This document shows, piece after piece, positions 701 through 58,692 of a stretch of DNA of 64,000 bases. The notes beneath the pieces were generated by a model. The model was given only the letters and a program-made list of their open reading frames with translations. It searched no databases and had not been told where the DNA came from. Within the stretch, counting starts at the first letter, position 1. Every line of letters begins with the position of its first letter. The stretch is taken from contig OX597815.1 of the NCBI GenBank assembly GCA_951406725.2, forward strand, positions 167,586,001-167,650,000. Reading direction: 5' to 3'. The stretch is from Octopus vulgaris. Lineage: Eukaryota. Both the position numbers and the translations under genes were made by a program.

Positions 701-825
701 TATTTATTTAACTGCATATGTGTTTGTGTGTGTGTGTGTGTACGCGTACGTATGTGTGTATGTATATATGTATGTATATTCTTTTTTTTTTTCAGTCAAT
801 TGACCGCGGCCGTGCTAGAGCACCG

Positions 826-888
<63 letters not shown>

Positions 889-904
889 ATGTGTGTATTT
901 TTCC

Positions 905-1853
905 CTTGTTTACAACTAACATGGAAAAAATAAATAAACAGTTACCATGGTAGCAAAATATTACACAAGCAATAAGGACGTAACACCCTGTTTGTATTGG
1001 TAGAAACTCCGGGTTTATGTGAAATATTTTGTATAATATATATAAATAAATAAACGGAGTTAAACGCAGGTGTTATTCAAAATCTTTTACTTCCAACATA
1101 TGTTTCGAAGACAGCATTGGTATTATTCCAAAGGAATATAATGGGGTAAAACAATGTAATCTTCTCACCAGGGAAAGAAACCAAACACATCAATAAGACA
1201 TTTTAACAGAATGTGATGGATGTGTATAATGATGAATGGAACGCTATTAAGTTTTTTTTTAAAAAAGACCGTTAGAAGATATAACGTCAAAGGTAGCCTA
1301 TAGAAAGAGAAGGAGTAAAGGAAAGAAATAAGCAGAAAACTAATAAAGGAGAAACATAGAGCGATATGTGAATTAAAAGAAAAGCTTAAATGCTTGGAAA
1401 TAGATATATCTAGTGGAAGTGAAATGTAAGAAGAAAATCAATGTTCAAATTATATATAATGGTAGATATCACTTATATGAACTAAAGGTATGTTTCTGCC
1501 AATGTTTACACCAATAAGCACGCTCTATAAACGTGTTTACAAGGGGATTCTTAGAAAATAGAATAGAAAATAGTTCACTATTACAGAGCTGGCAGAATTC
1601 TTTACCTTTATGATATGGGAATGAAATGGAGAGAATCAACCAATCTAAATTAAATTGTTTATTATGGTCTTTTAGATACACATCCATCACATTCTGTTAA
1701 AATGTCTTATTGATGAGTTTGGTTTCTTTCTTTCTTTCTCAGATGGGAAGATTACATTGTTTTACACCATTTTATTCCTTTGGAATAATACCAATGTTGT
1801 CTTCGAAACATATGTCGGAAGTAAAAGAATTTGAATAACATCTGCATTTAACT

Positions 1854-1856
<3 letters not shown>
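905..1856. mobile_element. PLE remnant: inverted pseudo-LTR pair around the 3' end of a GIY-YIG ORF
   Basis: ~1050-1226 is an inverted copy of ~1675-1856. Minus ORF 1469-1690 contains PYHKGKEFCQLCNSELFSILF..LVN, matching the C-terminus of the PLE ORF at 38738 (PYTNGSGRCGLCDMERWLI...LN). Bounded by (TA)n on both sides. Confidence 0.7.
1090..1176 (-). ncRNA. Degenerate hammerhead motif in pLTR (second copy 1735-1821, plus strand)
   Basis: UUUCC-CUGGUGA-GAAGA..UCUUC-GAAA-CAUAUG-UU-GGAAG. The other copy has CAGAUGG and GUC; combining the two restores CUGAUGA/GUC. Confidence 0.6.
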
Positions 1857-1903
<47 letters not shown>

Positions 1904-4053
1904 TTTCAACAATTGAGGGTAAAATTAATTAATTATTAATCAATTTCACCAAGTATTCAGTATGTAAAGGGACCATTTAAGGCGAATTCAAAATATTACA
2001 TTTTATAAAGGGCTTAGTAAAATAAATTACTTTGCCACATACTGAACTCATTAGAAATAGCAGCTAAAAAAATTTTTTTAGCCAAATTCTAATACTTAAA
2101 GAAAATTTCTCTCAGATAGTGCTTACTCAAAATAGCCCACGAAGGTATGGGGGTAAAAACATTAAAAAATCACATATGCAAAGGTTATTTGAGAACGTAC
2201 GTTTCTAGATCAGCCAAATACAATTCGACATTTCTTTCGTCAGCCCAAAATTCCTTAATTCGGATTTGTAAACACTGAAAGTAGGAGCATACCCTTTTGG
2301 TGACTTTTCACCTTCGAAGATCCGTTCAGACTACCAGTGCCAACAAATTCAAAATATGCAAGCGAAGAATTTCTGCCCTCCCCTTTCCACCCACGTGGGC
2401 TAAGTTAGCAAACACCATAATTTTATCGGTGAAAACCGAAGGATTAAACAGAGAGAAATGAATTATAATTTCAACAATTGAGGGTAAAATTAATTAATTA
2501 TTAATCAATTTCACCAAGTATTCAGTATGTAAAGGGACCATTTAAGGCGAATTCAAAATATTACATTTTATAAAGGGCTTAGTAAAATAAATTACTTTGC
2601 CACATACTGAACTCATTAGAAATAGCAGCTAAAAAAATTTTTTTAGCCAAATTCTAATACTTAAAGAAAATTTCTCTCAGATAGTGCTTACTCAAAATAG
2701 CCCACGAAGGTATGGGGGTAAAAACATTAAAAAATCACATATGCAAAGGTTATTTGAGAACGTACGTTTCTAGATCAGCCAAATACAATTCGACATTTCT
2801 TTCGTCAGCCCAAAATTCCTTAATTCGGATTTGTAAACACTGAAAGTAGGAGCATACCCTTTTGGTGACTTTTCACCTTCGAAGATCCGTTCAGACTACC
2901 AGTGCCAACAAATTCAAAATATGCAAGCGAAGAATTTCTGCCCTCCCCTTTCCACCCACGTGGGCTAAGTTAGCAAACACCATAATTTTATCGGTGAAAA
3001 CCGAAGGATTAAACAGAGAGAAATGAATTATAATTTCAACAATTGAGGGTAAAATTAATTAATTATTAATCAATTTCACCAAGTATTCAGTATGTAAAGG
3101 GACCATTTAAGGCGAATTCAAAATATTACATTTTATAAAGGGCTTAGTAAAATAAATTACTTTGCCACATACTGAACTCATTAGAAATAGCAGCTAAAAA
3201 AATTTTTTTAGCCAAATTCTAATACTTAAAGAAAATTTCTCTCAGATAGTGCTTACTCAAAATAGCCCACGAAGGTATGGGGGTAAAAACATTAAAAAAT
3301 CACATATGCAAAGGTTATTTGAGAACGTACGTTTCTAGATCAGCCAAATACAATTCGACATTTCTTTCGTCAGCCCAAAATTCCTTAATTCGGATTTGTA
3401 AACACTGAAAGTAGGAGCATACCCTTTTGGTGACTTTTCACCTTCGAAGATCCGTTCAGACTACCAGTGCCAACAAATTCAAAATATGCAAGCGAAGAGT
3501 TTCTGCCCTCCCCTTTCCACCCACGTGGGCTAAGTTAGCAAACACCATAATTTTATCGGTGAAAACCGAAGGATTAAACAGAGAGAAATGAATTATAATT
3601 TCAACAATTGAGGGTAAAATTAATTAATTATTAATCAATTTCACCAAGTATTCAGTATGTAAAGGGACCATTTAAGGCGAATTCAAAATATTACATTTTA
3701 TAAAGGGCTTAGTAAAATAAATTACTTTGCCACATACTGAACTCATTAGAAATAGCAGCTAAAAAAAATTTTTTAGCCAAATTCTAATACTTAAAGAAAA
3801 TTTCTCTCAGATAGTGCTTACTCAAAATAGCCCACGAAGGTATGGGGGTAAAAACATTAAAAAATCACATATGCAAAGGTTATTTGAGAACGTACGTTTC
3901 TAGATCAGCCAAATACAATTCGACATTTCTTTCGTCAGCCCAAAATTCCTTAATTCGGATTTGTAAACACTGAAAGTAGGAGCATACCCTTTTGGTGACT
4001 TTTCACCTTCGAAGATCCGTTCAGACTACCAGTGCCAACAAATTCAAAATATG
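1904..4053 (-). repeat. 565-bp tandem array, ~3.8 near-identical units, one hammerhead per unit
   Basis: TTTCAAC ends at 1910, 2475, 3040 and 3605 (period 565). Only isolated differences seen (e.g. G at 3499; A/T run in unit 4). Starts immediately after (TA)n. Confidence 0.95.
2188..2249 (-). ncRNA. Type-I hammerhead ribozyme motif (further copies 2753-2814, 3318-3379, 3883-3944)
   Basis: UUUGGG-CUGACGA-A-AGA..UCU-A-GAAA-CGUACG-UU-CUCAAA: canonical core, 6-bp stem I, palindromic stem III ACGUACGU, GUU triplet; position 10.1-11.1 is A.A. Confidence 0.8.
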
Positions 4054-4846
4054 TCGAATTGTATTTGGCTGATCTAGAAACGTACGTTCTCAAATAACCT
4101 TTGCATATGTGATTTTTTAATGTTTTTACCCCCATACCTTCGTGGGCTATTTTGAGTAAGCACTATCTGAGAGAAATTTTCTTTAAGTATTAGAATTTGG
4201 CTAAAAAAATTTTTTTAGCTGCTATTTCTAATGAGTTCAGTATGTGGCAAAGTAATTTATTTTACTAAGCCCTTTATAAAATGTAATATTTTGAATTCGC
4301 CTTAAATGGTCCCTTTACATACTGAATACTTGGTGAAATTGATTAATAATTAATTAATTTTACCCTCAATTGTTGAAATTATAATTCATTTCTCTCTGTT
4401 TAATCCTTCGGTTTTCACCGATAAAATTATGGTGTTTGCTAACTTAGCCCACGTGGGTGGAAAGGGGAGGGCAGAAATTCTTCGCTTGCATATTTTGAAT
4501 TTGTTGGCACTGGTAGTCTGAACGGATCTTCGAAGGTGAAAAGTCACCAAAAGGGTATGCTCCTACTTTCAGTGTTTACAAATCCGAATTAAGGAATTTT
4601 GGGCTGACGAAAGAAATGTCGAATTGTATTTGGCTGATCTAGAAACGTACGTTCTCAAATAACCTTTGCATATGTGATTTTTTAATGTTTTTACCCCATA
4701 CCTTCGTGGGCTATTTTGAGTAAGCACTATCTGAGAGAAATTTTCTTTAAGTATTAGAATTTGGCTAAAAAAATTTTTTTAGCTGCTATTTCTAATGAGT
4801 TCAGTATGTGGCAAAGTAATTTATTTTACTAAGCCCTTTATAAAAT
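4051..4846 (+). repeat. Inverted ~1.4 units of the same 565-bp repeat
   Basis: Reverse complement of 3130-3926 apart from a 1-nt indel and a substitution in the A/T run. ATG microhomology at the junction (4051-4053). Ends in (TA)n. Confidence 0.95.
4598..4659 (+). ncRNA. Type-I hammerhead ribozyme motif in the inverted arm
   Basis: TTTGGG CTGACGA ...TCTA GAAA CGTACG TT CTCAAA read directly on the plus strand; predicted cleavage after 4653. Confidence 0.8.
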
Positions 4847-4929: not shown

Positions 4930-6225
4930 AGGAGAAGTTCAAAATTATCCACATTTTCGACAAAATTTTGTTTGGCATGATTACAGTACCTTCAACGCTT
5001 GTGTGCTAAATAGTGGTACTTTTGTGGTCAACTGACAGGTTTTGATCTCTATAACACCAGTTTTCTTTCTTGTATTACAGAGTTAACATAGCTGCTCCGT
5101 TGGCAGTGTGCATCAAGGAAGCACAAAGAAGACTAATCCGATTTCTCTGGTCTGAAATGTGTGAGGGACTGAAATTCATCGCAGGCTCTCAGCGCCTCAC
5201 AGACACATTTTTCTACCGCGTAGAAATGTGTATGAGTGGATCGAGGAGTTTAAAAAATGGCTGGACAAATGTGAAGCAGGAAGAGGGAGCAAGGTGCTCA
5301 TCAACCGCCACCATTGATGTGAAGATTCAACAAGCTCGAGAGATAATTCTGGCGAACCAGCGAGTGAGTATTGATGAGATGGTATGTTCTCTGCAAATTC
5401 GTCATAGTTCTGCGTATGAAATTGTCCACGACCAGTTTCGCTTTTATAAAGTTTCTGCAGGGTGATTGCCAAGAGAGCTAACCAAAGCACATAAGTGCAA
5501 TCGTGTGGGTATCTATCAACACTTATTTGACCACTACAATGATGAAGGCGCAGGTACCTCAGACAGTTCTCTCTAAGCTACCTTAGAGAGAACTGTCATA
5601 GGAGATGAAATCTGGGTCCATCTCTTTGGACCAGAATCCAAAAGGCAGAGTATAGCATGGAAACATCAAGAAACGTCTGCAAAAAAAAAATATTCAAGAC
5701 GTAAACCTTCTGCAGCAAAAGTCATGCCAAACGTTTTTTTGGGACACAAAAGGGCCTATACTGGAACATTACGTGGAAAAAGGATACTACAGTCATTAGT
5801 GTAGACTACAGTGAAATTTTGGAGAACAAACTGAAACCTGTAATTCTCACCAAACACTGAGGTCTATTATCAAAGTAAGTGTTATTGTCACATGACAACG
5901 CACGCCCACATATGGCTGTCCACACTGTTGAAACCATTGTAAAACTTGGTTTTGATTTGCTGGAAACCCTACATACAGTCTAGATTTTGCTCCTTCTGAC
6001 TATCACCTTTTTAGACCGTTTAAACATCCTTTACGAGGTTGTCAGTTTACTGCAAACCAAGAAGCGCGGGAAGCGGTGCATAAATGGCTGCCGACCAGAT
6101 GTAAGCTTTCTTCTTCGATAGAATAAGTAAGATTGTGGACCATTGCAAGAAGTGCATCGAAAAGCAAGGAAACTATATCTAAAAATTTTGTAAGTGTTCA
6201 ACCGCTGCTTTTGTTTTATTAAATT
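4930..6225 (+). mobile_element. Degenerate mariner (DD34D-type) transposon
   Basis: Broken frames give an HTH region (ORF 5070-5465), LPRELT (WVP-like), GDEIWV, HDNARPH, YSLDFAPSDYHLF and KKCIEKQGNY. Confidence 0.9.
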
Positions 6226-8580: not shown

Positions 8581-8826
8581 GATTGTTACCAAGGAATACA
8601 AATTTGAGAACTCATCGATCCTACTTTGTCGATGCATAGACACCATGTCCAATAGTCTTCCTTATAATTTAGTGATCTAATTCAATAGATCGTAACCATT
8701 TTTTGCCTGTGAACCTATTTGATTCCTATTTTACTCCGATGGACCCTCATAGCCGTTAGATGTTAAAAAAAATATCATTAATTGTAGTTTTATAGTTAAA
8801 TATTATTAGGAATTGTAAAAACAATT

Positions 8827-9240
8827 CTCTTTTCTCTTTTACTTGTTTCAGTCATTTGACTGTGGCCATGCTGGAGGACCGCCTTTAGTCGAGCAAGTCG
8901 ACCCCAGGACTTATTCTTTGTAAGCCAAGTACTTATTGTATCGGGTCTTTTTTGCCGAACCGCTAAGTTACGGGGACGTAAACACACCAGCATCGGTTGT
9001 CAAGCGATATTGGGGGGACAAACACAGATACACAAACATATATACACACATACATACATATATATATACATATGTACGACGGGCTTCTTTCAGTTTCCGT
9101 CTACCAAATCGACTCACAAGGCTTTGGTCGGCCCGAGACTATAGTAGAAGACACTTGCCCAAGGTGCCACGCAGTGGGACTAAACCCGGAACCATGAGGT
9201 TCGTAAGTATGCTACTTACCACACAGCCACTCCTACACCT
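8827..9240 (-). mobile_element. SINE family A, full length
   Basis: tRNA-like head (GGCTGTGTGGTAAG..GGTTCCGGGTTtAGTCCC), conserved core, internal microsatellite and tail CCAGCATGGCCACAGTCAAATGACTGAAACAAGTAAAAGAG; repeated throughout the window. Confidence 0.9.
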
Positions 9241-10331
9241 ATGTAAAAGTTTTTTGTGTATTTTAGAAGTATAATTCGTTTATTAGACATGAATTTTAGT
9301 AAAATCTTATGTGGACACCCAAGGGTCATATGGACCCCGGTGGACAACCACTGCTCTAATTAAAGGCCAGTTTCACTTTTTCCGCCATTTTGCAAGCCTT
9401 GACTAATAAGAGTCAAACTCATGGGCGTCCAGTTAGGAGCGATTTAATCAACATCTCGCAGTTACATGTCTATTCACGATGATGCACATATAAGACTTGA
9501 ATAATAAAATGCAGAATCTAATTATAATATAAACTTCACTAAATCCATTGATATTCACTTATGTTGTTTGTTAAAATAAGCGTGTGCATACGTATATTCA
9601 TACATACACACGCGCAGGTTCTCTCACACACATAGTACACACATACACACAAACACATATATAAGCATACGCACACATATATGTGTATACGTGCAATGCA
9701 TGTGTGTGTGGTGAGTGTGGAAGTAAACTGCATGTGGGTCGTGTATTTATGCTTGTATATACTTGTGTGTGTGCATGTGTGTATGGTTGTGCATGTGTGT
9801 TTGCGTGCATGTGTGTGTGTGTTTGTGTGTGTGTGTCTGTGTGTGTGAGCGACAATTATGTTAGAAATCTTGTGCAGTCATATCGACAAAAATAATAAAT
9901 TATCTTTTGCAACCATTTGATATATTTGAAAGCGTATCAAATGTTGAAACCAGACGATACCCAACACCCGCAACATTTTAGTTTGTGGGGTGGAGACGAG
10001 CGTTTATGTGTTATTCTGCTCTTTTCACAGCTATATATTAAGAAATCACTTAGGGTTAAGCAAAGATTAGAAAGTTAGACTAGAAACAAATTTAGTTCTC
10101 TTTTCTCACATTAAAAAATGTCCATTGAGATAAACGTTTTAAAATTGGTTCTAATTAATTATAATCTGGCAGGCAATTATTCACAAAAAACAACACGATA
10201 GCGAAAGAAACAGCACCAAACTTTAAATTATAAGTGCTACAAATGCTCAGCAAAAAAAAAAAACCCTTACAATTTCATGTGGTGATCACATATTCATAAC
10301 ATGTTAAATCAGGAAAGACTACTCACCTTTC

Positions 10332-15440: not shown

Positions 15441-15846
15441 GCGTAGGAGGGGCTGTGTGGTTAGTAGCTTGCTTAAAAACCACATGGTTCCGGGTTCAGT
15501 CCTAATGCATGATACCTTGGGAAAATGTCTTCTACTATAGCCTCGGGTCGACCAAAGCCTTGTGAGTGGATTTGCGAGACGGAAACTGAAAGAAGCCCGT
15601 CGTATACATGTATATATATATATATGTATGTGTGTGAGTATATGTTTCTGTGTCTGTGTTTGTCCCCCAAACATCGCTTGACAGCCGATGCTTTTGTGTT
15701 TACGTCCCCGTAACTTAGCGGTTCGGCAAAACAGACCGATAGAATAAGTACTAGGCCTGGGATCGATTTGCTCGATTGAAGGCGGTGCTCCAGCATGGCC
15801 ACAGTCAATGACTGAAACACGTAAAGCAGTAAAAGAGTAAATAGTA
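15441..15846 (+). mobile_element. SINE family A, full length
   Basis: Same head, core and tail as 8827-9240. Confidence 0.9.
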
Positions 15847-16667
15847 TAGTAGAAGTGATTATTAATATTATCTATGTTGAGTGTCTGTGTGTGCTCCAAA
15901 ATTCCAAATGAGGTGGTGGTGGTGGTGGTGGTGGTGGTGGTGCTGCTGCTGCTGCTGCTGCTGCTGATGCAGCTGGTGTTTTAATATCTTTGGAAAAGGC
16001 ATTACTGCCACGACTTATGTAAGCCATACACTTCACTGACACAAGTTAATATACTGAGCGTCTCACCATACGATAAATAGGTTAAGCTCAACCAATAACT
16101 CTATCATCACGTAATTTTTTTTTAAGTATCATGATTGCTTTATATATTCCACATTTCACAAACCCCTGAAACATTTAACATACCCATACTGAAATCGCCC
16201 ACAGCCAGTTCAGCGACTGGTAATTAGAAAAGCTTTTGTTCACTCCACGCTTGAGATGATATCAATGATTGATTATAAATAGCGCTCTATTATATCGTCA
16301 GAGTTCTGTATATAGGCGCATATACCTGTATTTGCTTATGTTTGTTTGGCTATGTTTGTATTTATTTTCATTTTTTTATAAGGTCATGAAGCCTGAAATT
16401 CATCACCAAGAGAGAATGAGGTTGTCTCATTTATATTTTCTGAGAGAGCATTCACAAACTAACTGAAAGTACTTCTGTCTTGAAATGGAAATAATAACAA
16501 CTAAATCCATCCATCTCTCTACTCTACATTCTCTCTCTTTCTCCCTCTCCTTCCTTCTCTCCCCAGATACGCATACATATTGCTTATATAAATATGCCAT
16601 GCGTGTGTATATATATACACGTATACATATATAAATGCATATAATAACACACACACACACACATATA

Positions 16668-17050
16668 CTCTTTTTCTCTTTTACTTGTTTCAGTCATTTG
16701 ACTGCGGCCATGCTGGAGCACCGCCTTTAGTCGAGCAAATCGACCCCGGGACTTATTCTTTGTAAGCCCAGTACTTATTCTAGCGGTCTCTTTTGCCGAA
16801 CCGCTAAGTGACGGGGACGTAAACACATCAGCATCGGTTGTCAAGCACAGACACACAAACATACACACACATATATATATACATATATACGACAGGCTTC
16901 TTTCAGTTTCCGTCTACCAAATCCACTCACAAGGCATTGGTCGGCCCGGGACTATAGCAGAAGACACTTGCCCAAGATGCCACGCAGTGGGACTGAACCC
17001 AGAACCATGTGGTTTGTAAGCAAGCTACTTACCACACAGCCACTCCTGCG

Positions 17051-17052
<2 letters not shown>
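16668..17052 (-). mobile_element. SINE family A
   Basis: Same head, core and tail; abuts (TA)n. Confidence 0.9.
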
Positions 17053-17117
<65 letters not shown>

Positions 17118-24128: not shown

Positions 24129-24730
24129 CAGTAGTTTTATTTTTATAGCGTGCTTTCACTTCACTACCGAGCGCAGCTCTGTGTGCCTTGGGTATGTGCT
24201 GTGATGCTCTGATGGTTATTGTATGGAAAGCGTAGGATGTGTGCAGTGCCTAGTAGTGCAATTTTCTGTATGTTATATGTGTTTGTAAGTCCTGGTGTTT
24301 TTGTTATGTATTTGTCTGAATATTTTTTTATCATGCCTAATGCACCTACTATGATAGGAATTGTTTCTGTTTTCAGATTCCACATTCTAGTTACCTCTAT
24401 TTCCAGGTCTTTGTATTTTGAGAGTTTCTCCATTTCTTTTAGAGACACGTTGTCATCTGCCGGTATTGATACATCAATTAGAAAGCATTTTTTTCTTCAT
24501 GATCTCTGACAACTATATCTGGTCTGTTGGCCTTAATTTCTCTATCTGTGTGTATCGGCATATCCCAGAGTATGGTTGCTTTCTCGTTTTCTGTGACCTT
24601 TTCTGGAGTGTGCCTATACCATCTTTTTTCTGTTGTTATTCCATAATGTTGGCATAGCTTCCAATGTATGTAGGTTCCAACTCTGTCATGTCTGTGAATA
24701 TATTCCTTCTTAGCCAGGACTGGGCAGCTA

Positions 24731-24731
<1 letters not shown>
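24129..24731 (-). mobile_element. R4/Dong-like RLE LINE 3' fragment in (TAA)n
   Basis: SCPVLAKKEYIHRHD..W..C; ILWDMPIHTDREIKANRPDIVV; IDVSIP; EKLSKYKDL; PIIVGALG. Embedded in (TAA)n. Confidence 0.92.
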
Positions 24732-28554: not shown

Positions 28555-28556
<2 letters not shown>

Positions 28557-29172
28557 TAGCTGCCCAGTCCTGGCTAAGAAGGAATATATTCACAGACATG
28601 ACAGATGTGGAACCTACATACATTGGAAGCTATGCCAACATTATGGAATAACAACAGAAAAAAGATGGTATAGGCACACACCAGAAAAGGTCACAGAAAA
28701 CGAGAAAGCAACCATACTCTGGGATATGCCGATACACACAGACAGAGAAATTAAGGCCAACAGACCAGATATAGTTGTCAGAGACCATGAAGAAAAAAAT
28801 GCTTTCTAATTGATGTATCAATACCGGCTGATGACAACGTGTCTCTAAAAGAAATGGAGAAACTCTCAAAATACAAAAACCTGGAAATAGAGGTAACTAG
28901 AATGTGGAATCTGAAAACAGAAACAATTCCTATCATAGTAGGTGCATTAGGCATGATAAAAAAATATTCAGACAAATACATAACAAAAACACCAGGACTT
29001 ACAAACACATATAACATACAGAAAATTGCACTACTAGGCACTGCACACATCCTACGCAGAACACTTTCCATACAATAACCATCAGAGCATCACAACAAAT
29101 CACAGCACATACCCAAAGCACACAGAGCTGCGCTCGGTAGTGAAGTGAAAGCACGCTATAAAAATAAAACTA

Positions 29173-32106: not shown

Positions 32107-32258
32107 ATTACCCCCGCCTTAGCGATGGCGAAAGTATTGTTTCACTTATGTTTGTTTGTCAGTGGTCAAGATATCTCAAGAACCACTGGGTGGATTCGGA
32201 TGAAACCTTCAGGACTGGCACGAACTGATTAGATTTTGGGATTGATCCAGTATCGGAC
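32107..32258 (+). mobile_element. Short interspersed element fragment, possibly Helentron-associated
   Basis: TTACCCCCGCCTTAGCGATGGCG terminal hairpin, (GTTT)n and GGATTCGGATGAAAC layout; family assignment is inference. Confidence 0.35.
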
Positions 32259-32259
32259 A

Positions 32260-32933
32260 AGCTAAAGCACGCAGAGTATAGCCGCTTGGCACAGATTGAC
32301 CTTGAACACTGCTGTGCATGAACATTTTTCAGAAACTTTTCATCGTTCTCGACACAATCAAGGAGATCTTGTGCAACTGAAACCCGAGTGTCTTGGTCAG
32401 CTGAAAGCAGTTTTGGCACAAACTTGGCAGACACGTGTCTCATGCCCAAATTTTCTGTGATAATGTACTGAACTGAACCGTAACTGATCTGCACATCCTC
32501 TGATAGCTCACGGAGGGTTATTCGGAGATTTCCCCTCACAACTGCACGCACATCTGCGATGTTTTTCTCAGCTCTCTGGTTGGGGTTCTCTCAGGACGTT
32601 CGACAATATCGACAAATTTTCGTCCATCTTAGAAATGTCTGAAGCGTGTGTACGGCTCATACACTCCTCACCATACACTTTCTGCAGCTTTGTGTAGGCT
32701 TCTGAGCGGGTATCGCCATGACAACTTTCTCTGTCATGGTCAATGCGACGACCACACGCTACACACCTTCCTATCAAGCACTGCCGTAGACAGTAGAATT
32801 GAGCCAAAACGGTAAACCTTAGTGTGCATGCACAGAAAAGTTCAAGGTCAACTTTTGCCAAGCGACGTCGCTCTGCGTGCTTTAGCTTCGTTACTATGGT
32901 AACAGTCCGGATACTTATTGATCAGACTTCGTA
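32260..32933 (-). mobile_element. Internally deleted mariner with long inverted termini
   Basis: LRELSEDVQISYGSVQYIITENLGMRHVSAKFVPKLLS; TIR ends at TA 32932-32933; 32260-32308 is an inverted copy of ~32840-32887; a plus-strand fragment is duplicated at 33005-33078. Confidence 0.85.
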
Positions 32934-33679
32934 TATATATCAAGAGGGATGAAGAGAAAAGGAAGGAAAAATAGACAGAAACTATGGTCAAGTAATAGTC
33001 GATCTCAGAAGCCTACACAAAGCTGCAGAAAGTGTATGGTGAGGAGTGTATGAGCCGTACACACGCCTCAGACATTTCTTATGTAAAAGTCGACCCCCTA
33101 TCTTTGGCCAAAAGATTTTGAGAATTTTTCATAGACCCCGTATAAAAGTCAACCCTAGTATTTCACGAAAAACATTTGTGGACCAAGTTACCGTATTTTC
33201 CTGTACGTAGAAATAACACTGTTACATTATTGTGCGGCTATCTTACTGGAACCTGCTGTATAAGTGGAATGCTTGGGGCTTATAATGGAATGTTCGGTGC
33301 TTATAGTAAAACACTATTCAATAGTGAGCACTACACACCTGTTGATGAGTGCTACATTACCATTACTAAAATGTATGCACAGGATATGCTGCTAGCCTGC
33401 ATACATCTTGAAGCACATTAAACACATGCGTCATACACTCATTATTTACATGGTGAGAAACGCGCTTCACCGTCAGCATTATTGGCGAACACTGGCAAAC
33501 GTCACTATCTGAATTCGTAGAAAGGCATGACTTTGATAAGCCTAAAAACATTTAGTTAATCGCTAGATCAGTGGTTCCCATGCAACCTTTATATTTTCTT
33601 CTTCTCCAAATACAATAATCACATGCGTTATACGCTCGTCTATATACACATCACTATCGGCGAACAACAGCAAACACCA

Positions 33680-34846
33680 TTGTAATTACAATTTGGATTC
33701 TACGAGATATGGACTTGTACAAAGTTTGAATTGTTTCCAAAGGAATTTTTGTCCATTCAACAGCTAAAACAGTCCCCAGTTCCTGTAGTGATGATGGTGA
33801 AGGATATTTACTCCTTATTTGTTTTTCTAATATGTACCATACATGTTCACTAATATTGAGATCTGGGGACAGTGGGGGCCAGGTAAGATGTTCAACTTCA
33901 TTAGAATGTTCCCCGTACCATTCAGTAACAACTTTAGCCGTGTGAATCGCTGCATTGTCATCCTGAAAGATTGCGTTTCCCTCTAGAAACAGTTCTGTAA
34001 CCATAGGATATATTGATCAGATGAAATGCTTAAATAGTTTTTACTATTAATCCTGCCATGAAGGGAAACCATTGGGGTGGCGGATTTCCAAGATATAGCC
34101 CCCTAGATCATCACAGATACTCCTCCATGTTTAGCAGTTGGAAGAAGACAGTCTAGGTCAAATACTTCCTTTGGCTGTCTCCACACGTATACCCGGCCGG
34201 AGGTCGGAAATAAGGTAAAGGATGACTCATCCGAGAAAATAATATTCTTCCACTGCTCTATGGACCAATTCTTTAAGATTTTACTCCACTCTAAACCCTT
34301 TGCAACGTTTGTTTTTGAAAGTAGTGGTTTTCTGATTGCAGCCCTCCAGCTCCCGGCGAACAGTTTTTGTGGAAACTGCGTTCACGAGGTGGTCATTAAG
34401 CTCTGCATTAATTTTGGGAGCTGTAATTTTGTGATACTTTCTAACAATTCGCGTAGGAGTTTCACGGTCCCTATCTGGAAGTTTTGGTTTTCTTCCGGAG
34501 TTTTGTTTCGACGAGGAGGTTTTTCCCTCTTTCTCAAAGGCTGTCATTACTTTCGATACACTACTTCTTAATACACCAAACATTTCGGCTGTTTTCGTTT
34601 GGCTAGCGCCTGGTATACAGCTGTTTGTCCTCTTTGAAAGTCCGATAGATGTGTCATTTTAATGAATTTTAATAACCTTTTACTGATGATATCTGAAAAG
34701 AAACTGTAATTTTAATCAAACATATTAAGCAACACTAATGATAAATCAAAAACACATCAAAATAAACAAGCTTTTGGCGGTTTTATAGATATTTCAAAAT
34801 TATGATTCTTTGAATGGTATGTGTTTCCATTATTTTGTCCAACCCT

Positions 34847-36925: not shown

Positions 36926-37096
36926 TTCACTCTTAATGCAACATGAATATTTCAATAACTTAATGTGTATGACATCATCTTTATTCTACTTCAATTATTA
37001 CATTTTCTCTTATAAAATACACACATACAGGTGGAGTAAGTTATATATATGATAATGCTTAGAATGTGGCTTCTGAAAAATAGTAAAAGTAATTAT

Positions 37097-37262
37097 GTAT
37101 ACGACGGGCTTCTTTCAATTTCCGTCAACGAAATCGACTCACAAGGCTTTGTCCGCCCGAGGCTATAGTAGAAGACACTTGCCCAAGGTGTCACGCAGTG
37201 GACCTCAGCCTGGATCCACATGGACGGAAAACGAGCTTGTTACCAAACAGTCTCACCTTCGC

Positions 37263-38246: not shown

Positions 38247-38351
<105 letters not shown>

Positions 38352-38737
38352 TGATAAAACGGTAAGATAACAAAAGAAAGAAAGAGACCTCAATATTATG
38401 TAAATAGAGGAAATTTATCTATACAATATGTTACATTACTCGGTAGTCAAGATAAAACTCTGAGTTTCAAATGCCGATGAAATCCACAACACCATCTCTT
38501 CGGTTATATAAAACGTTATATACCGTTAAAATATCTGGTTTACGCCCCTACTCACCCGAGGTAATATAGGTAAATATTTCCTATGATAGATAGACATTTT
38601 CCAGTTAACCATGCTTATAGGAAACTATAGACACAATTTAAAAATTAGTTTTAGTTCAACTACCAATTTTAAAAACATAATCAATCATAACATACAAAAA
38701 ACACAAGAAGAAAACAGCTGTTCATAGGAATAAAGAA

Positions 38738-39175
38738 TTGTGCCCGCTAAATGGAGCTTGCATGTCCAAGACCATCATATATGAAGCTACCGTAAACTCT
38801 ATAACCACTAAAGACACCGTTTCGACGAAGAAATACGTGGGCCTGACAGAGGGTAATTTCAAGGCCAGGTTCAATAACCACACTTTGAGCTTTAGGCACT
38901 GGAACAAAAGAAAAGCGACGCAATTATCCAATCATATTTGGTCTTTAAGAGATAAAGGTGTCGATTATAACATACAATGGAAGATTTTGGCCAGATGTAA
39001 GCCCTATACTAACGGCAGCGGAAGGTGCGGTTTATGCGACATGGAGAGATGGCTTATCTGGAAAAGCAGCTTAGACCCTACCACATGTCTAAATACAAGG
39101 ACAGAGCTTTTCGGATCATGCCCACATGTGACTAAATTTCTGTTACGTTTTTGGTCCCCTAAAGAAAACGGATAG
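38738..39175 (+). pseudogene. PLE GIY-YIG endonuclease domain (open 145-codon fragment, no RT)
   Basis: CPLNGAC..IIYEATV..KYVGLTEGNFKARFNNHTLSF..TQLSNHIWSL..WKIL..CGLC..E..LN.R.E. Confidence 0.88.
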
Positions 39176-39357
39176 AACATGCTTTCTGTGTTATGTCCCA
39201 AGAAGATTTTATATATTTTATATTTTATATATTTTTATATATTTTTATGTATATATATTTTTATGACGAAAAATATATAAGTACGCAGGCAAAGCAGAGT
39301 TATAACAGAGTAATTTCCCTTCATTTTTAACGGTATTTTTTCATAACGTTTTCAAAT

Positions 39358-39410
39358 ATAACCGAAGAGATGGTGTTGTGGATTTCCATATCTGAAACTC
39401 AGAGTTTTAT
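39358..39410 (+). ncRNA. Hammerhead-like motif with U4C core (inverted copy 38452-38507)
   Basis: AUAA-CCGAAGA-GAUG..-GAAA-CUCAGAG-UU-UUAU in both pLTR copies; stem II register is imperfect. Confidence 0.6.
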
Positions 39411-40107
39411 CTTGACTACCGAGTATGTAACATATTGTATAGATATATATATATATATATACATATATATATTTCATACATAACTCTCCCCCTCCTCATA
39501 ACCCCCTCTCCCCCTCCTCACCTATCCTTTCTCCCCCGACCCCTACTTCTACAGTCCTTCATCCTTTCATATATATCCCCTCCTCCCCTTCCTTCTCCCC
39601 ATCCTCTCCTCTTCCCCTTCTCCTCTCTTCTTCCCCTCGCCTTCTCTCCCCTCTTCTCCCCTCCCCTCTTCTCCTCACTATGACTTTACACATCACATCA
39701 CATATGATGTGCCATACTAATACACACACCAACTAATACATACTAATACGTATAATACATACCAGTATACTAATACTTATATATATATATATACTCTCAC
39801 ACACACACACACACACACCTATATATACGTATAATACATACTAATACATACTAATACATACACCAACCCCATACATACGCACGTATCTTACGCACTATAT
39901 ATATATATATATACATATATATATCCAGACCCTCCCACGCACTAGTTCCCTCAACCCTTTTATCAACCCTATTATCTAATATCTTTGACCTCTGGCATTC
40001 TTATAACTGCAAATAAGAATAAAGCTTGTTTTATTTATATTTCCGAGCTTATTAGTTCTTTGTTTTCCACCTGCCTTCGTCTTTTGTTTATTTTCATAAA
40101 GCTTCCG

Positions 40108-40144
<37 letters not shown>

Positions 40145-40159
40145 CCATACATACATACA

Positions 40160-40199
<40 letters not shown>

Positions 40200-40278
40200 T
40201 ATATATATATATATATATATGCTATGTATGTATGTATGTATTTATATATATATATATATAAATACATACATACATACA

Positions 40279-40332
<54 letters not shown>

Positions 40333-40335
40333 TTA

Positions 40336-40690
40336 GCATTCTTATAAAAATAAGAATAGGTGTTATCCATATAACCTTCGAACAAGGGAGGTCAGTCGCT
40401 CCACACTACTTGACCGGCAGCTACAGACGCGTTTCGGGGTATTGCCCCTTTTCAATGCAGCGTAGCCAGCCAGTAGGTGTCGCTTCTGACAATCTCTGTT
40501 CGATGGTTTTATTTACCTAGTTTCGGTGGAATACATCCACTTGTAGCTGCCGGTCAAGTAGTGTGGAGCGACTGACCTCCCTTGTTCGAAGGTTATATGG
40601 ATACAGTTTGTGTATCAAATAGCTAACTTAAGGCGATGGCCTCATGGAGCTAATAAGCGGACAGCTTTATTCTTATTTTTATAAGAATGC
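40336..40690. mobile_element. Fold-back pLTR/retrozyme-like insertion
   Basis: Perfect inverted repeat ~40364-40425 / 40542-40603 plus an outer inverted repeat ~40336-40358 / 40668-40690; follows (TA)n. Confidence 0.8.
40420..40461 (-). ncRNA. Type-I hammerhead with compensatory U3:A8 core
   Basis: GCUGCA-UUGAAAA-GGGG-CAAUA-CCCC-GAAA-CGCG-UC-UGUAGC: all three stems present, GUC triplet. Confidence 0.8.
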
Positions 40691-41098
40691 CATATTAGTA
40701 TAGCGATAACTATTATTTTCCGGGAACGCTGCCGCTGTTCTCTTTTAGAGAGACTTAGTAATTTTAATATTTCTATTATATATATATACATATTTATATA
40801 TTTACATCCACGGATACAAACATACTTGTGTGTGTGTGTGTGTGTGTGTACATTACTTGACTGTCTGGTGTTTGTTTGATATCGGTAAAAAGAGTGAAAA
40901 AAATAATACCCGACATATAGTGGGATTGTGTGAGGATGAGGGACCAAAGGAAAATAAATCTGACAACAAACTGAAAAAGAAAAAAAGCACTGAAATAATA
41001 GATATTGATAGAAAAAGAGTAAAAGAAAGGACAGTAAAAACAAAATAAAAAGAGGGAGCAAACTGAAAGAAAAAACGTGAGAGAGAGAGAGAGAGAGA

Positions 41099-41177
<79 letters not shown>

Positions 41178-43002
41178 GAGAGCAGTAGATTGAAAAAGAG
41201 CGACAAAGAAAGTGAGATGGTTTGAAAAATAGGTAAATTGTCGCTGTAGGATTTCATATTTTGAAAGGGATAACCCGTTAAAAGGCCGACAGTTAGAGAA
41301 GCCCTTCTTTTCTTTGTTTCTCTTTTTACTGCTTCCACCCCAGGTAACTAACTCCACCACCAGTATCCCTACCACAGTAATATGTAAGGAAAACAACACC
41401 TCCTACACTACAAATAATACTACCAGTTCGACCAATATGTTCTTTTTGTACAATGTTAGATAGATTTTTCAGAAAGAACTAACCACGTCCTTTACAAACA
41501 TTTACAACCTGCTGTTATATCAATGAAAAATTAGTTATATAACAAACTTGAGTTTATTCTTGTTACATTTAATCCCATAAATGTTTTTGGACAATGACTT
41601 TCGGGAGTAAATGATAGCCAGAGAAGTCGGGACGTGTGAAAGTGTACAAGTGTGTCAGTTGACTATTTTATAGAAATTTCTGCATGATGCGTGCGTGTGT
41701 GTGTGTGTGTGTTTGTTTGTTTGTTGGTGCGTGTGTGTTTGTGTGAGCTTGTGTGGGTGTGTGAGTATGTATAGTTGTTAATGAATGTTCTGTATGTAAT
41801 AGGTGAGACCCATGTGATATATATATATTCATACATGCATATATGTTGTTGCTGCTTGTGTTGCTGTTGTTCTTTAGCCCTTTGCCCGCCCTAATCAAAC
41901 AGACATGATCAAAGTGGTTCCGGTGGTTAACACCCCGTCTAAACACACACATACACATACATACACACATACAGACACACTCACACACACTCATACAAAC
42001 ATACAAACACACATATATATAATATATTTGTTTGCGTATGTCATAGATACATGCGTATATATGTGTGACTGTGTATGTTTGTAAGCAAGGGTGTGTGTTA
42101 GTATTCACAGTGGCGTCAGAGAAATCTGCTTTGTACAATTTCACAGGCATAAAAGCATTTCTTAACTTTCAGATGTTGTCGATCTAAATAACATATCATA
42201 TAGTTTTAAAGAGTTCTGATTATCATCAGCTGGTGTCTAAAATTCATTCCTTTTAATCTGTTCGTGTTATATGGTGATTACTAGGGGACTTTAAGGATTG
42301 CAGCAACTGCTACATAGCAAACAACTTGGGCGCAATAGATAAAAGTAGTCTCTTTTAATTTCATCAGTAATTCCAGTAGTAAATGAGTTTCAATAAAATT
42401 TACGAAAAATATTTTTCAAATAGTGGCTTAGATTTATCTAATAGGAACCTCCGTCATAACAGCACTATGAAAGTTCGAACGGCTTCAGAAACACCACTGA
42501 CAATTTTTGAATGTGAGTAATGTCTCAAAGAAACATGTATGGCTGTTAGGCGCAGAAGCCGAAAAAGGAAGAAGCCTTGTCGACTATGTTCAACGTTTCT
42601 TGGTCTCAAAGTTTCCAGATAAACTGTGTTAAGGCTGTAGAGTTCGCTCGGTTCTTGTATCTTAAGGAAGAACAGACGCTGATTGATTTTTCTTTTGATA
42701 CCTTTCTCTGGAATTCGGAAATCCCGCAATATTCCTCGTGATAGCCTAAGGAGGAATGTGGCGTTTGCTCTAGAAGCTATACCTTTGGACAGGGAGAATC
42801 CCTTCTTTTGACAGGTACTTTAAATTTACATATTTGCATGAAGGTGAGTGGGATAGGGCCTGCATGGGTGTTTTTGTTTCTTTCTCTTTAAGACTTCGAT
42901 CCAATCTATATTTGTTCCTACAAACATTTAACTCACATAGAGCAGCACATACACTTGACAGCATACACTTTAAAAAACAAAAAGGAACGTATACGAACAT
43001 AC

Positions 43003-49582: not shown

Positions 49583-49584
<2 letters not shown>

Positions 49585-49745
49585 TGGTAAAAACGTAAGA
49601 TAACAAAAGATAGAAAAAGACCTCAAGATTATGTAAATAGAGGAAATTCATCTGTAAAATATGTGACAATTATTCGGTAGCCAAGATAAAACTCAAAAAG
49701 AGAGTTTTATCTTGGCTACCGAATAATTGTCACATATTATTTTAG
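49583..49745. mobile_element. Fold-back derivative of the pLTR family seen at 38351
   Basis: Similar to 38351-38460; perfect 37-bp arms 49658-49694 / 49702-49738; lies between (TA)n tracts. Confidence 0.85.
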
Positions 49746-54530: not shown

Positions 54531-54913
54531 AATAGATATGTGTGTGTGTGTGTTTATGCATGTTTTGCTTGTGTGATCATTTTGTCAAAAGTTGGTAATT
54601 TATTCATACTTTCTTCCTCGTTTGATCAGTACAGGAAGCGGAAATGTCGGTAAAATTTTCTTATAACTTTCTTTCGGTCATTTGACTGTGGCCATGCTTG
54701 AGTACCGCCTTGGAGGATTTTAATCGAACAAATCGCACTCCCATCCAGGACTTAACTTTTAAGTCTAGTACTTATTCTATCGGTCTCTTTTGCCGAAACC
54801 GCTAAGTTACGGGGTGAGAAACTCACCAAAACCTTAGGCAAGTGGTTAAGGGGGAAAACACAGACACAGATACACACACATAGACATATATACACATATT
54901 ATGTATATATATA

Positions 54914-57397: not shown

Positions 57398-58692
57398 CAT
57401 ACATAACAAACACACTTATAACGAAATACAAACATGTATGGAAACCAATAATCTAAACTAAGACAAATATATAAACATACATAAATACAAAGTATTATGT
57501 ATACTAACATAAACACGTATATTCCTCTTCCATGCAAATATAGTTAAATACGTAAACAAACACTCTCGTGTATTATATATCCGTAAACACATACGCACAC
57601 GCGGGCGCAGACATAGACTCAAACAGAAACAAATACATTAGCACACACAGAGACATGTGTAGGCAAAGATACACACATATGCATACATATATATTCGAAG
57701 AATCGTAAGCATACACACACAAGCATACATACTTATGCTTACAAATACATTCCAATTCGATATACAATTGTAAACAAAACATGGCTGATGACAATATATC
57801 AGTCCCGTGTGGGCTTTAGCTAGAAATCAGTGGAGAGGGGAGGGTAAGTGGTAACAAGAAAAGAAACTGGAAGGGAGAAAGTAGAGATGTAAAGAAAAAA
57901 AATAAAGGAAAATTGAAATTAAAATAAAAGCAAAGCAAAATGGTAATTTTAGGTCAAAGAATTTAAAGAGGAATGGAAAAATGTTCTCAGCACCTATAAC
58001 TGACTAGTGAAAGTAAATGAACACCCAGGGAGAAAAAAACACAGAAAATGAAATTTAAACAAATTTTTCTCCTTGTACTGTGTTCGTAAGTTCTTAGGAC
58101 TCAGACCTCCAAAGTAATACGCCAAGACATAAACGTTGCATCGTTTACTTACCTCAAAGATTTTGATTTCAAAAAGAGAATAGATGAAAACAAAAAGAGT
58201 GAAAAAAAAAACATATCAGAAAAAGCATTTATAAGGAAAAGAATCACAAGCATAGTGAAACTTAGAAATACCAGCATCGAAACTAATAAGAAAATACCCC
58301 AACCCTTATACAGAAATATAAACAATTCTGGCCCTTCGTATCTGTTGTGAGCATTAATAGGTTTCCAGTCTGGAGATCTTAGCATCTGAGGATAAGCTAT
58401 GCCTCATGGTTGCATCTTGCATTTCTCGAAAATCTAAGAAAAAGAAAACAAAAAGAAAAATAGAGAAAGATGAACCGCTATATAAATAAATATATATATA
58501 TAAGTATGCATATACGACGAGTGTCTTCCAGTTTCCGTCTACCAAATCCATTCACAAGACTTTGGTCGGCCCGAGGCTATAGTAGAAGACGCTTGACGAA
58601 AGTGCCACGCAGTGGGACTAAACCCGGAACCATGTGGTTAGGAAGCAAGCTTCTTCTACGCAGCCACGCCCTCGCCTATATTTATATATATA

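Follow-up and report, generated by a model that had tools for sequence, protein, structure and literature searches.

One end of a repeat insertion in the Octopus vulgaris genome lies at the predicted cleavage site of a hammerhead ribozyme carried by the same repeat, which raises the question of whether this copy was made from an RNA that had already cleaved itself in the cell. The locus was analysed within a stretch of 64,000 nt, referred to as the window, whose numbering is used for all positions; it was picked, among 423 windows of the genome, for this coincidence at the cut.

Structure of the Insertion

At this locus a 362-nt non-coding hammerhead repeat is inserted head to head into a (TA)n microsatellite. 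The insertion consists of two pieces in opposite orientation, both of which terminate in the TA microsatellite. With the repeat unit numbered from the cut, piece A comprises unit 1–238 on the plus strand and piece B comprises unit 244–362 followed by unit 1–149 on the minus strand, and unit 1–149 thus occurs twice at the locus. The features are the following:

40109–40335, no strand: (TA)n/(TATG)n microsatellite, left flank (target), recognized by sequence
40336–40544, minus strand: piece B, unit 244–362 then 1–149, minus 57 nt; 3' end (unit 149) at 40336, 5' end at 40541–40544
40336–40358, minus strand: outer left arm, unit 127–149, 23 bp, complementary to 40668–40690
40359–40363, minus strand: deletion junction where piece B has lost 57 nt (unit 63–119), with small changes
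40364–40425, minus strand: inner left arm, unit 1–62, beginning directly after the hammerhead cut
40413–40470, minus strand: first hammerhead, canonical type I, predicted cut between 40426 and 40425
40514–40544, minus strand: second hammerhead-like motif, 3' part, degenerate; 5-bp hairpin 40540–40526, GAAA 40524–40521, GUA 40516–40514
40542–40544, no strand: 3-nt microhomology at the inversion junction, unit 1–3 on the plus strand and unit 244–246 on the minus strand
40542–40779, plus strand: piece A, unit 1–238; 5' end 0–3 nt from the cut of the first hammerhead, 3' end abutting the TA flank
40753–40760, plus strand: strand predicted to pair over 7 bp with A-CUAGGU of the second motif (type III-like helix III), then A as position 17; pair probabilities 0.84–0.97 in the predicted circle
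40780–40805, no strand: TA-rich right flank (target), recognized by sequence

The inner arms (40364–40425 and 40542–40603) are complementary over 62 of 62 bp, with no inward extension, and the outer pair of arms (40336–40358 and 40668–40690) measures 23 bp. The element exceeds the inverted repeat that had been found earlier, its right piece reaching 40779 and its left piece, which carries the 57-nt deletion, reaching 40336. Piece A ends 5 nt short of the native start of piece B, and the two 3' ends lie 89 nt apart in this one copy, the only one examined with both flanks (n = 1). Since both flanks are TA microsatellite, a target-site duplication is unreadable.

The 362-nt Repeat Unit

Contigs of four public runs (773–3469 per run) were aligned to 40330–40770. 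At least half of the sampled words were present in 20 of the 24 public runs listed, and in the four runs the family sequence covers the stretch through its right end. In all four, contigs (27, 16, 14 and 13) depart from the window sequence after 40544, and what follows in them matches the reverse complement of 40760–40779. An opposite-strand joint from 40544 to 40770 was listed in each of the four runs, which indicates that the family unit closes on itself. The resulting unit of 362 nt is made up of 238 nt (40542–40779), 5 nt that are absent at the locus and were taken from contig loose ends, and 119 nt (40544–40426). No frame of at least 120 amino acids was found inside it; one microsatellite-driven frame (40642–41253) overlaps its end. 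The predicted circle of 362 nt has a folding energy of −119 kcal/mol (z = −6.9 against 100 shuffles), with helices I and II of the first hammerhead formed.

Non-LTR retrozymes of metazoans have been described from coral, mussel (350–390 nt) and axolotl (330/350 nt) (Cervera and de la Pena 2020, PMC7229834; Li, Clavereau and Pollet 2026, bioRxiv 10.64898/2026.07.22.740005). On sequence criteria the 362-nt unit is a non-LTR retrozyme, a further member of this known class. Like the described elements it is non-coding, falls within 150–450 nt and below 50% G+C (41%), and bears a type I hammerhead with a short, weak, palindromic helix III; it likewise occurs in a more-than-unit copy, belongs to a family that is high-copy in the contigs of the four public runs, and is predicted to form a stable, self-paired circle in which the ribozyme can fold. 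Having no RT or GIY-YIG frame, the unit does not qualify as an autonomous Penelope-like element, and no partner autonomous element was identified for it in the window.

A full tandem array of the 362-nt family was seen neither in the window nor in the contigs. Pattern scans for further copies gave 0 matches in genome contigs and 0 in viral contigs, and the sole match, in a metagenome contig, was discarded because it is a 20-nt stretch of GC-rich DNA that agrees by chance. None of the public runs listed as containing the sequence is recorded as RNA. Two that were guessed to be RNA, and may be DNA, contained contigs identical over 101 nt across the cut; contigs reveal neither ends nor circles.

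The First Hammerhead

The ribozyme extends from 40461 to 40420 of the minus strand and shows a 6-bp helix I prolonged by a further 6 bp beyond an internal loop, a helix II of 4 bp, the core UUGAAAA at 40455–40449 (U3-A8), GAAA at 40435–40432, and the palindromic CGCG followed by GUC, the cut being predicted between GUC and UGUAGC. It was the sole full type I match of the descriptor in the 64-kb window, and matches of its quality were obtained in 0 of 20 dinucleotide shuffles. The folding z of the region was −3.3, and helix I with its extension ranks with the most stable regions of the predicted structure (pair probabilities 0.94–1.0). With Rfam, there were 0 matches that reached the gathering score anywhere in the window, and within 40330–40800 no hammerhead family was matched even at E values up to 10. 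The U3-A8 core is a hammerhead variant described in PMC4209133.

In the two deep runs no variant at 1% or more was listed for the core. Four of the five changes listed in helices I and II keep the pairing (40438, 40458, 40422 and 40423, the last two in one low-depth contig each), and the fifth, at 40461, breaks the end pair of the helix. A15.1 (40432) was changed in one low-depth contig. In one contig the palindrome CAUG replaces CGCG in helix III, with helix I fully paired. The first hammerhead looks selected.

Other Insertions and Repeats in the Window

Three further head-to-head insertions were found in the window, with 3' ends 96, about 67 and about 67 nt apart, as compared with 89 nt at 40336–40779. 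The first is a hammerhead array of 565-nt units (1904–4846), tandem-plus-inverted in (TA)n, with 3.8 units on the minus strand and 1.4 on the plus strand. Its core CUGACGA lies at 2243 (minus), the cut is predicted before 2193, and the 3' ends are those 96 nt apart. The three full units differ at 0, 0 and 1 sites, and the inversion junction again shows a 3-nt microhomology. Similarity between the 362-nt and 565-nt units was not significant (score 48 against 41 ± 6 for shuffles).

The second is a Penelope-like remnant in (TA)n (about 38350–39444) comprising a GIY-YIG C-terminal frame at 38681–39175 (E 0.003, below the cut-off) and an inverted copy of its own 3' end, with a possible minimal hammerhead with the box CCGAAGA in its 3' region. 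Its ends differ from those of the 362-nt element. The third (49583–49745), a foldback, belongs to this Penelope-like family as well, and its two 3' ends, about 67 nt apart, are at identical positions, so that 2 of 2 copies share them; both of its 5' ends fall within the palindromic helix III, about 5 nt upstream of where the putative hammerhead would be cut. Fixed positions of the two 3' ends were thus seen only for the GIY-YIG-bearing family (2/2 copies) and not for the 362-nt family.

A 183-nt minus-strand fragment between TA runs (39926–40108) shares with the 362-nt family a hairpin near unit 127–149, with a different loop (local score 65 against 30 ± 5 for shuffles). It was considered as a second copy ending at unit 149 and rejected, as it apparently continues for about another 70 nt, up to the TA flank.

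The window also contains abundant short interspersed repeats (8821–9242, 15441–15842, 16661–17055, 37090–37203, 54656–54814 and 58501–58667), presumably an octopus SINE. The tails of three copies yield false half-hammerhead matches (8849, 15814 and 16691), which were discarded as they come without a 5' core box; a fourth half-hammerhead match lies at 5439. An inverted pair, 24147–24731 and 28556–29157, is 96% identical over about 600 bp, and its frames resemble the C-terminal part of a non-LTR retrotransposon protein. The frames at 32159–32590, 33654–34658 and 5055–5465 resemble remnants of Tc1/mariner transposases, and a 76-bp inverted duplicate (32631–32706 and 33004–33079) accompanies one of these Tc1/mariner-like frames. 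MITE-like inverted repeats of about 200 bp (89%) are found at 1032–1227 and 1676–1880, with an AT-rich spacer of 450 bp.

The Junction at the Cut

The right arm had been reported to start exactly 3' of GUC in the preliminary description. The edge of the arm does lie at the cut and the 62-bp repeat is perfect, but "exactly" is softened by the 3-nt microhomology. TGT at 40542–40544 is also native to the spacer side in the family contigs, and since these positions are common to both pieces, piece A begins at unit 1, 2, 3 or 4 (four registers). The outer edge of the microhomology corresponds to unit 1 exactly, and the true end is 0–3 nt from the cut.

Under uniform stopping, the chance of an end of piece A at unit 1–4 is 4/362 (1.1%; 0.3% for the exact edge). 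Piece B starts 5–8 nt past the 3' end of piece A, for which the chance is 2.5%, and jointly the two coincidences would be expected in about 3 of 10,000 cases. The coincidence at the cut was selected for; the abutment of the two pieces was invisible when the locus was picked, so this second coincidence was not. Against run-off, microhomology by itself makes many joints available: those of at least 3 nt exist at 12 of the 362 unit positions for the observed start of piece B, and at 63 of the 362 for starts within 6 nt of it.

A post-insertion inversion of the DNA, two independent insertions or a fold-back in the assembly might also have given rise to the inverted repeat. The 57-nt deletion of the left arm looks later, as would suit an origin of this kind, and among the 32 records listed no contig spans the exact junction. 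A fold-back would copy one sequence, however, whereas each piece has parts of the unit that are absent from the other; an inversion in place would still require an element starting at unit 1–4, independent insertions would not abut in unit coordinates, and the window holds three more insertions of head-to-head shape. Origins of this sort are considered highly improbable.

The reading put forward at the outset, that reverse transcription ran off the self-cleaved 5' end of an RNA, stands as the best single explanation, with the reservation that it concerns one copy with a blur of 0–3 nt and that chance could have produced the match. It gains independent support from the reconstructed unit, in which the two pieces also meet at the second priming site; twin priming on a single linear RNA would lead to just that. 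Linear self-cleaved retrozyme forms exist in animal tissue, as described in PMC7229834. According to PMC11167929, the anole Penelope-like element could insert in vitro without cleavage, and none of its reads started at the cut. No report of hammerhead-retrozyme copy boundaries at the cut was found in searches of the open-access literature.

A peak of family boundaries at the cut, the check proposed beforehand, did not appear in the contigs, but the comparison is insensitive: of the 969 contigs in a second alignment, which included the two deep runs, no more than 17 contained a non-fitting part, and flank junctions therefore mostly escape it. No loose end at 40425/40426 or 40542–40545 was present among those listed (24 of 238; 12 of 25 in the second alignment), nor was any position with many molecule ends. 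Depth showed no step across the cut (1.05M against 1.03M in run X1, 0.29M against 0.32M in run X7).

The lack of a peak in the contigs speaks for another reading, in which the enzyme and its two priming sites are the same but the RNA template was either a closed circle or a multimer left uncut; piece A would have stopped near unit 1 by chance, the joint forming at the closest 3-nt microhomology. According to PMC7229834, the main retrozyme RNA is usually the circle, and the two arms of the locus are identical over 62 + 23 bp. The near-identical units of the young 565-nt array suit a circular template, and its 5' ends lie 38 and 165 nt upstream of its cut (0/2 at the cut); when both retrozyme-like insertions are pooled, 1 of the 4 5' ends coincides with a cut, namely the one for which the locus was picked. 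Moreover, with a family of so many copies, a scan of the whole genome should turn up a 1% event many times over. On this reading, however, the match at the cut has to be luck, and the two coincidences together have the joint frequency given above, although the first was selected for. A monomeric circle further needs one enzyme to halt at the primer of the other while the other displaced 149 nt, and after such displacement a stop at the cut has no stated reason. Copying from a circle or an uncut multimer is judged somewhat unlikely.

The end might also mark the cut in another way, through a stall of the enzyme on the circle, either at its strong helix I or where it was ligated, or through a failed end-to-end jump on linear monomers. 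End-to-end template jumping is known from R2 elements. Helix I and its extension are very stable in the predicted fold, but a stall at this helix would be expected on its 3' side, at about unit 13, and not at unit 1. Piece B crosses the cut site without a scar, which counts in favour of this explanation, but its clean read-through also counts against it. Both forms of this explanation, taken together, are regarded as quite improbable.

Run-off of reverse transcription at a hammerhead-cleaved RNA 5' end is, on this evidence, somewhat favoured, and the edge of the copy at the cut is likely the trace of a template RNA that had been cleaved in the cell beforehand.

Proposed Mechanism of Insertion

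The insertion was likely made by a Penelope-type reverse transcriptase priming twice on one linear RNA of about 1.4 units. That the 5' end of this template was made by hammerhead self-cleavage is, for the whole, the best explanation, held with modest confidence. An oligomeric transcript would be cut at the first hammerhead and left uncut at the next, which has a weak palindromic helix III and a U3-A8 core. One nick in the target would prime at unit 149 of the second unit, and copying would proceed back through the uncut hammerhead to unit 244–247, where it would meet the second primer. The other nick would prime at unit 238 of the first unit, from which the enzyme would run off the cut end at unit 1. 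The two cDNA ends would then anneal via 3 nt and be joined, and the long inverted repeat would later shed 57 nt from one arm. A linear RNA reaching from unit 1 through the uncut hammerhead to unit 149 would explain both stops, since one enzyme halts at the second primer and the other runs off. The second hammerhead-like motif would not be needed for the insertion.

The Second Hammerhead-Like Motif

A half-hammerhead had been noticed in the spacer on the minus strand, and it is indeed present at 40540–40514. Its description as truncated at the core holds for the copy in the window and not for the family, in which the 5' core half exists: recovery of the full unit from the family contigs gave a 5' box UUGAAAA at unit 238–244, and the boxes (C/U)UGAN(G/A)A, GAAA and GUH then follow in order. 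Patterns like this one occurred in only 3 of 3000 shuffles, which makes the motif likely hammerhead-derived. The earlier proposal of two distinct ribozymes is borne out in that a second, non-chance core exists in the family, and fails in that the G10.1-C11.1 pair and a helix I beside the cut are both missing. Helix II is not closed by G10.1-C11.1, A facing C at this place, and the 5-bp hairpin is flanked by three unpaired bases on its 5' side and one on its 3' side; this pair is described as highly conserved in hammerheads in PMC4209133.

A type I reading was rejected, as it has no stable helix I (pair probability 0) and lies 9.8–12.9 kcal/mol above the ground state. In a type III reading 40753–40759 would form a helix III of 7 bp, with the cut after 40760, at a cost of 3.3 kcal/mol. 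The helix III pairs A15.1-U16.1 and C15.2-G16.2 are both predicted, with the probabilities listed above, whereas four unpaired bases precede helix I and a helix I directly after the cut is absent. The 5' box is paired in the ground state of the predicted circle. No change at 3% or more was listed for 40505–40544 in the contigs of the four runs. The motif is probably a broken relic, and activity is, from these predictions, improbable. The UUGAAAA box may be kept as a priming signal, since the long 3' end of the 565-nt family also falls at TTGAAA.

Comparison with Known Elements

The 362-nt unit differs from the described metazoan retrozymes in its U3-A8 core, in its second, degenerate hammerhead-like motif and in being inserted head to head, one of the two 5' ends being located at the cut. 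For retrozymes the proposed route is reverse transcription of circles, whereas the copy at 40336–40779 reads better as a product of linear cut RNA.

It is argued from Xenopus that retrozymes derive from Penelope-like repeats (bioRxiv 10.64898/2026.07.22.740005), adjacent inverted 5'-truncated copies and (TA)n targets are given as Penelope-type traits in PMC8557442, and the anole Penelope-like element is described as starting reverse transcription at two internal sites (PMC11167929). With endonuclease-bearing Penelope-like elements the locus shares an adjacent inverted copy, a TA target, two 3' ends and a hammerhead. Unlike theirs, its unit carries neither an RT nor a GIY-YIG frame, its 3' ends are separated by 89 nt instead of 30–40, and its first hammerhead is canonical, not minimal. 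U3-A8 cores and pairs of hammerheads on opposite strands are described for Schistosoma elements (PMC4209133).

Twin priming of L1 leaves one element split into two inverted fragments between which some internal sequence is deleted (PMC2837659), and the present locus resembles it in its two inverted fragments, the short internal deletion at the inversion point and the microhomology at the junction. Unlike L1, it has no poly(A) and no readable target-site duplication, and its second priming site is probably fixed and not a chance internal match. In R2, genomic 5' junctions are set by an HDV-like ribozyme and joined by chance microhomology, as reported in PMC3774820. Both R2 and the octopus copy have a genomic 5' junction that reports a ribozyme cut site and a microhomology joint, but R2 uses another ribozyme and is an autonomous element with a fixed rDNA target.

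Significance

The insertion at 40336–40779 is a real feature and an instructive single copy. The route of animal retrozymes into DNA has been proposed only, as reverse transcription of circles by Penelope-like enzymes (PMC7229834), and their mechanism is described as remaining to be worked out (bioRxiv 10.64898/2026.07.22.740005). A tentative and, taken as a whole, unlikely extension of our reading is that animal retrozymes are also copied by Penelope-type enzymes from linear self-cleaved RNA with two fixed priming sites, the boundaries of the copies recording cleavage in vivo; in this family it would include a second, type III-like hammerhead junction with a 7-bp helix III, its core lying partly on the second priming site and being either a relic or a switch. 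If a peak of 5' ends at the cut is absent, the insertion would be an ordinary copy of a known class. If the 5' ends of the 362-nt family do peak at the cut, the genome would show cleavage in the germline by a U3-A8 hammerhead, together with the use of linear RNA as template.
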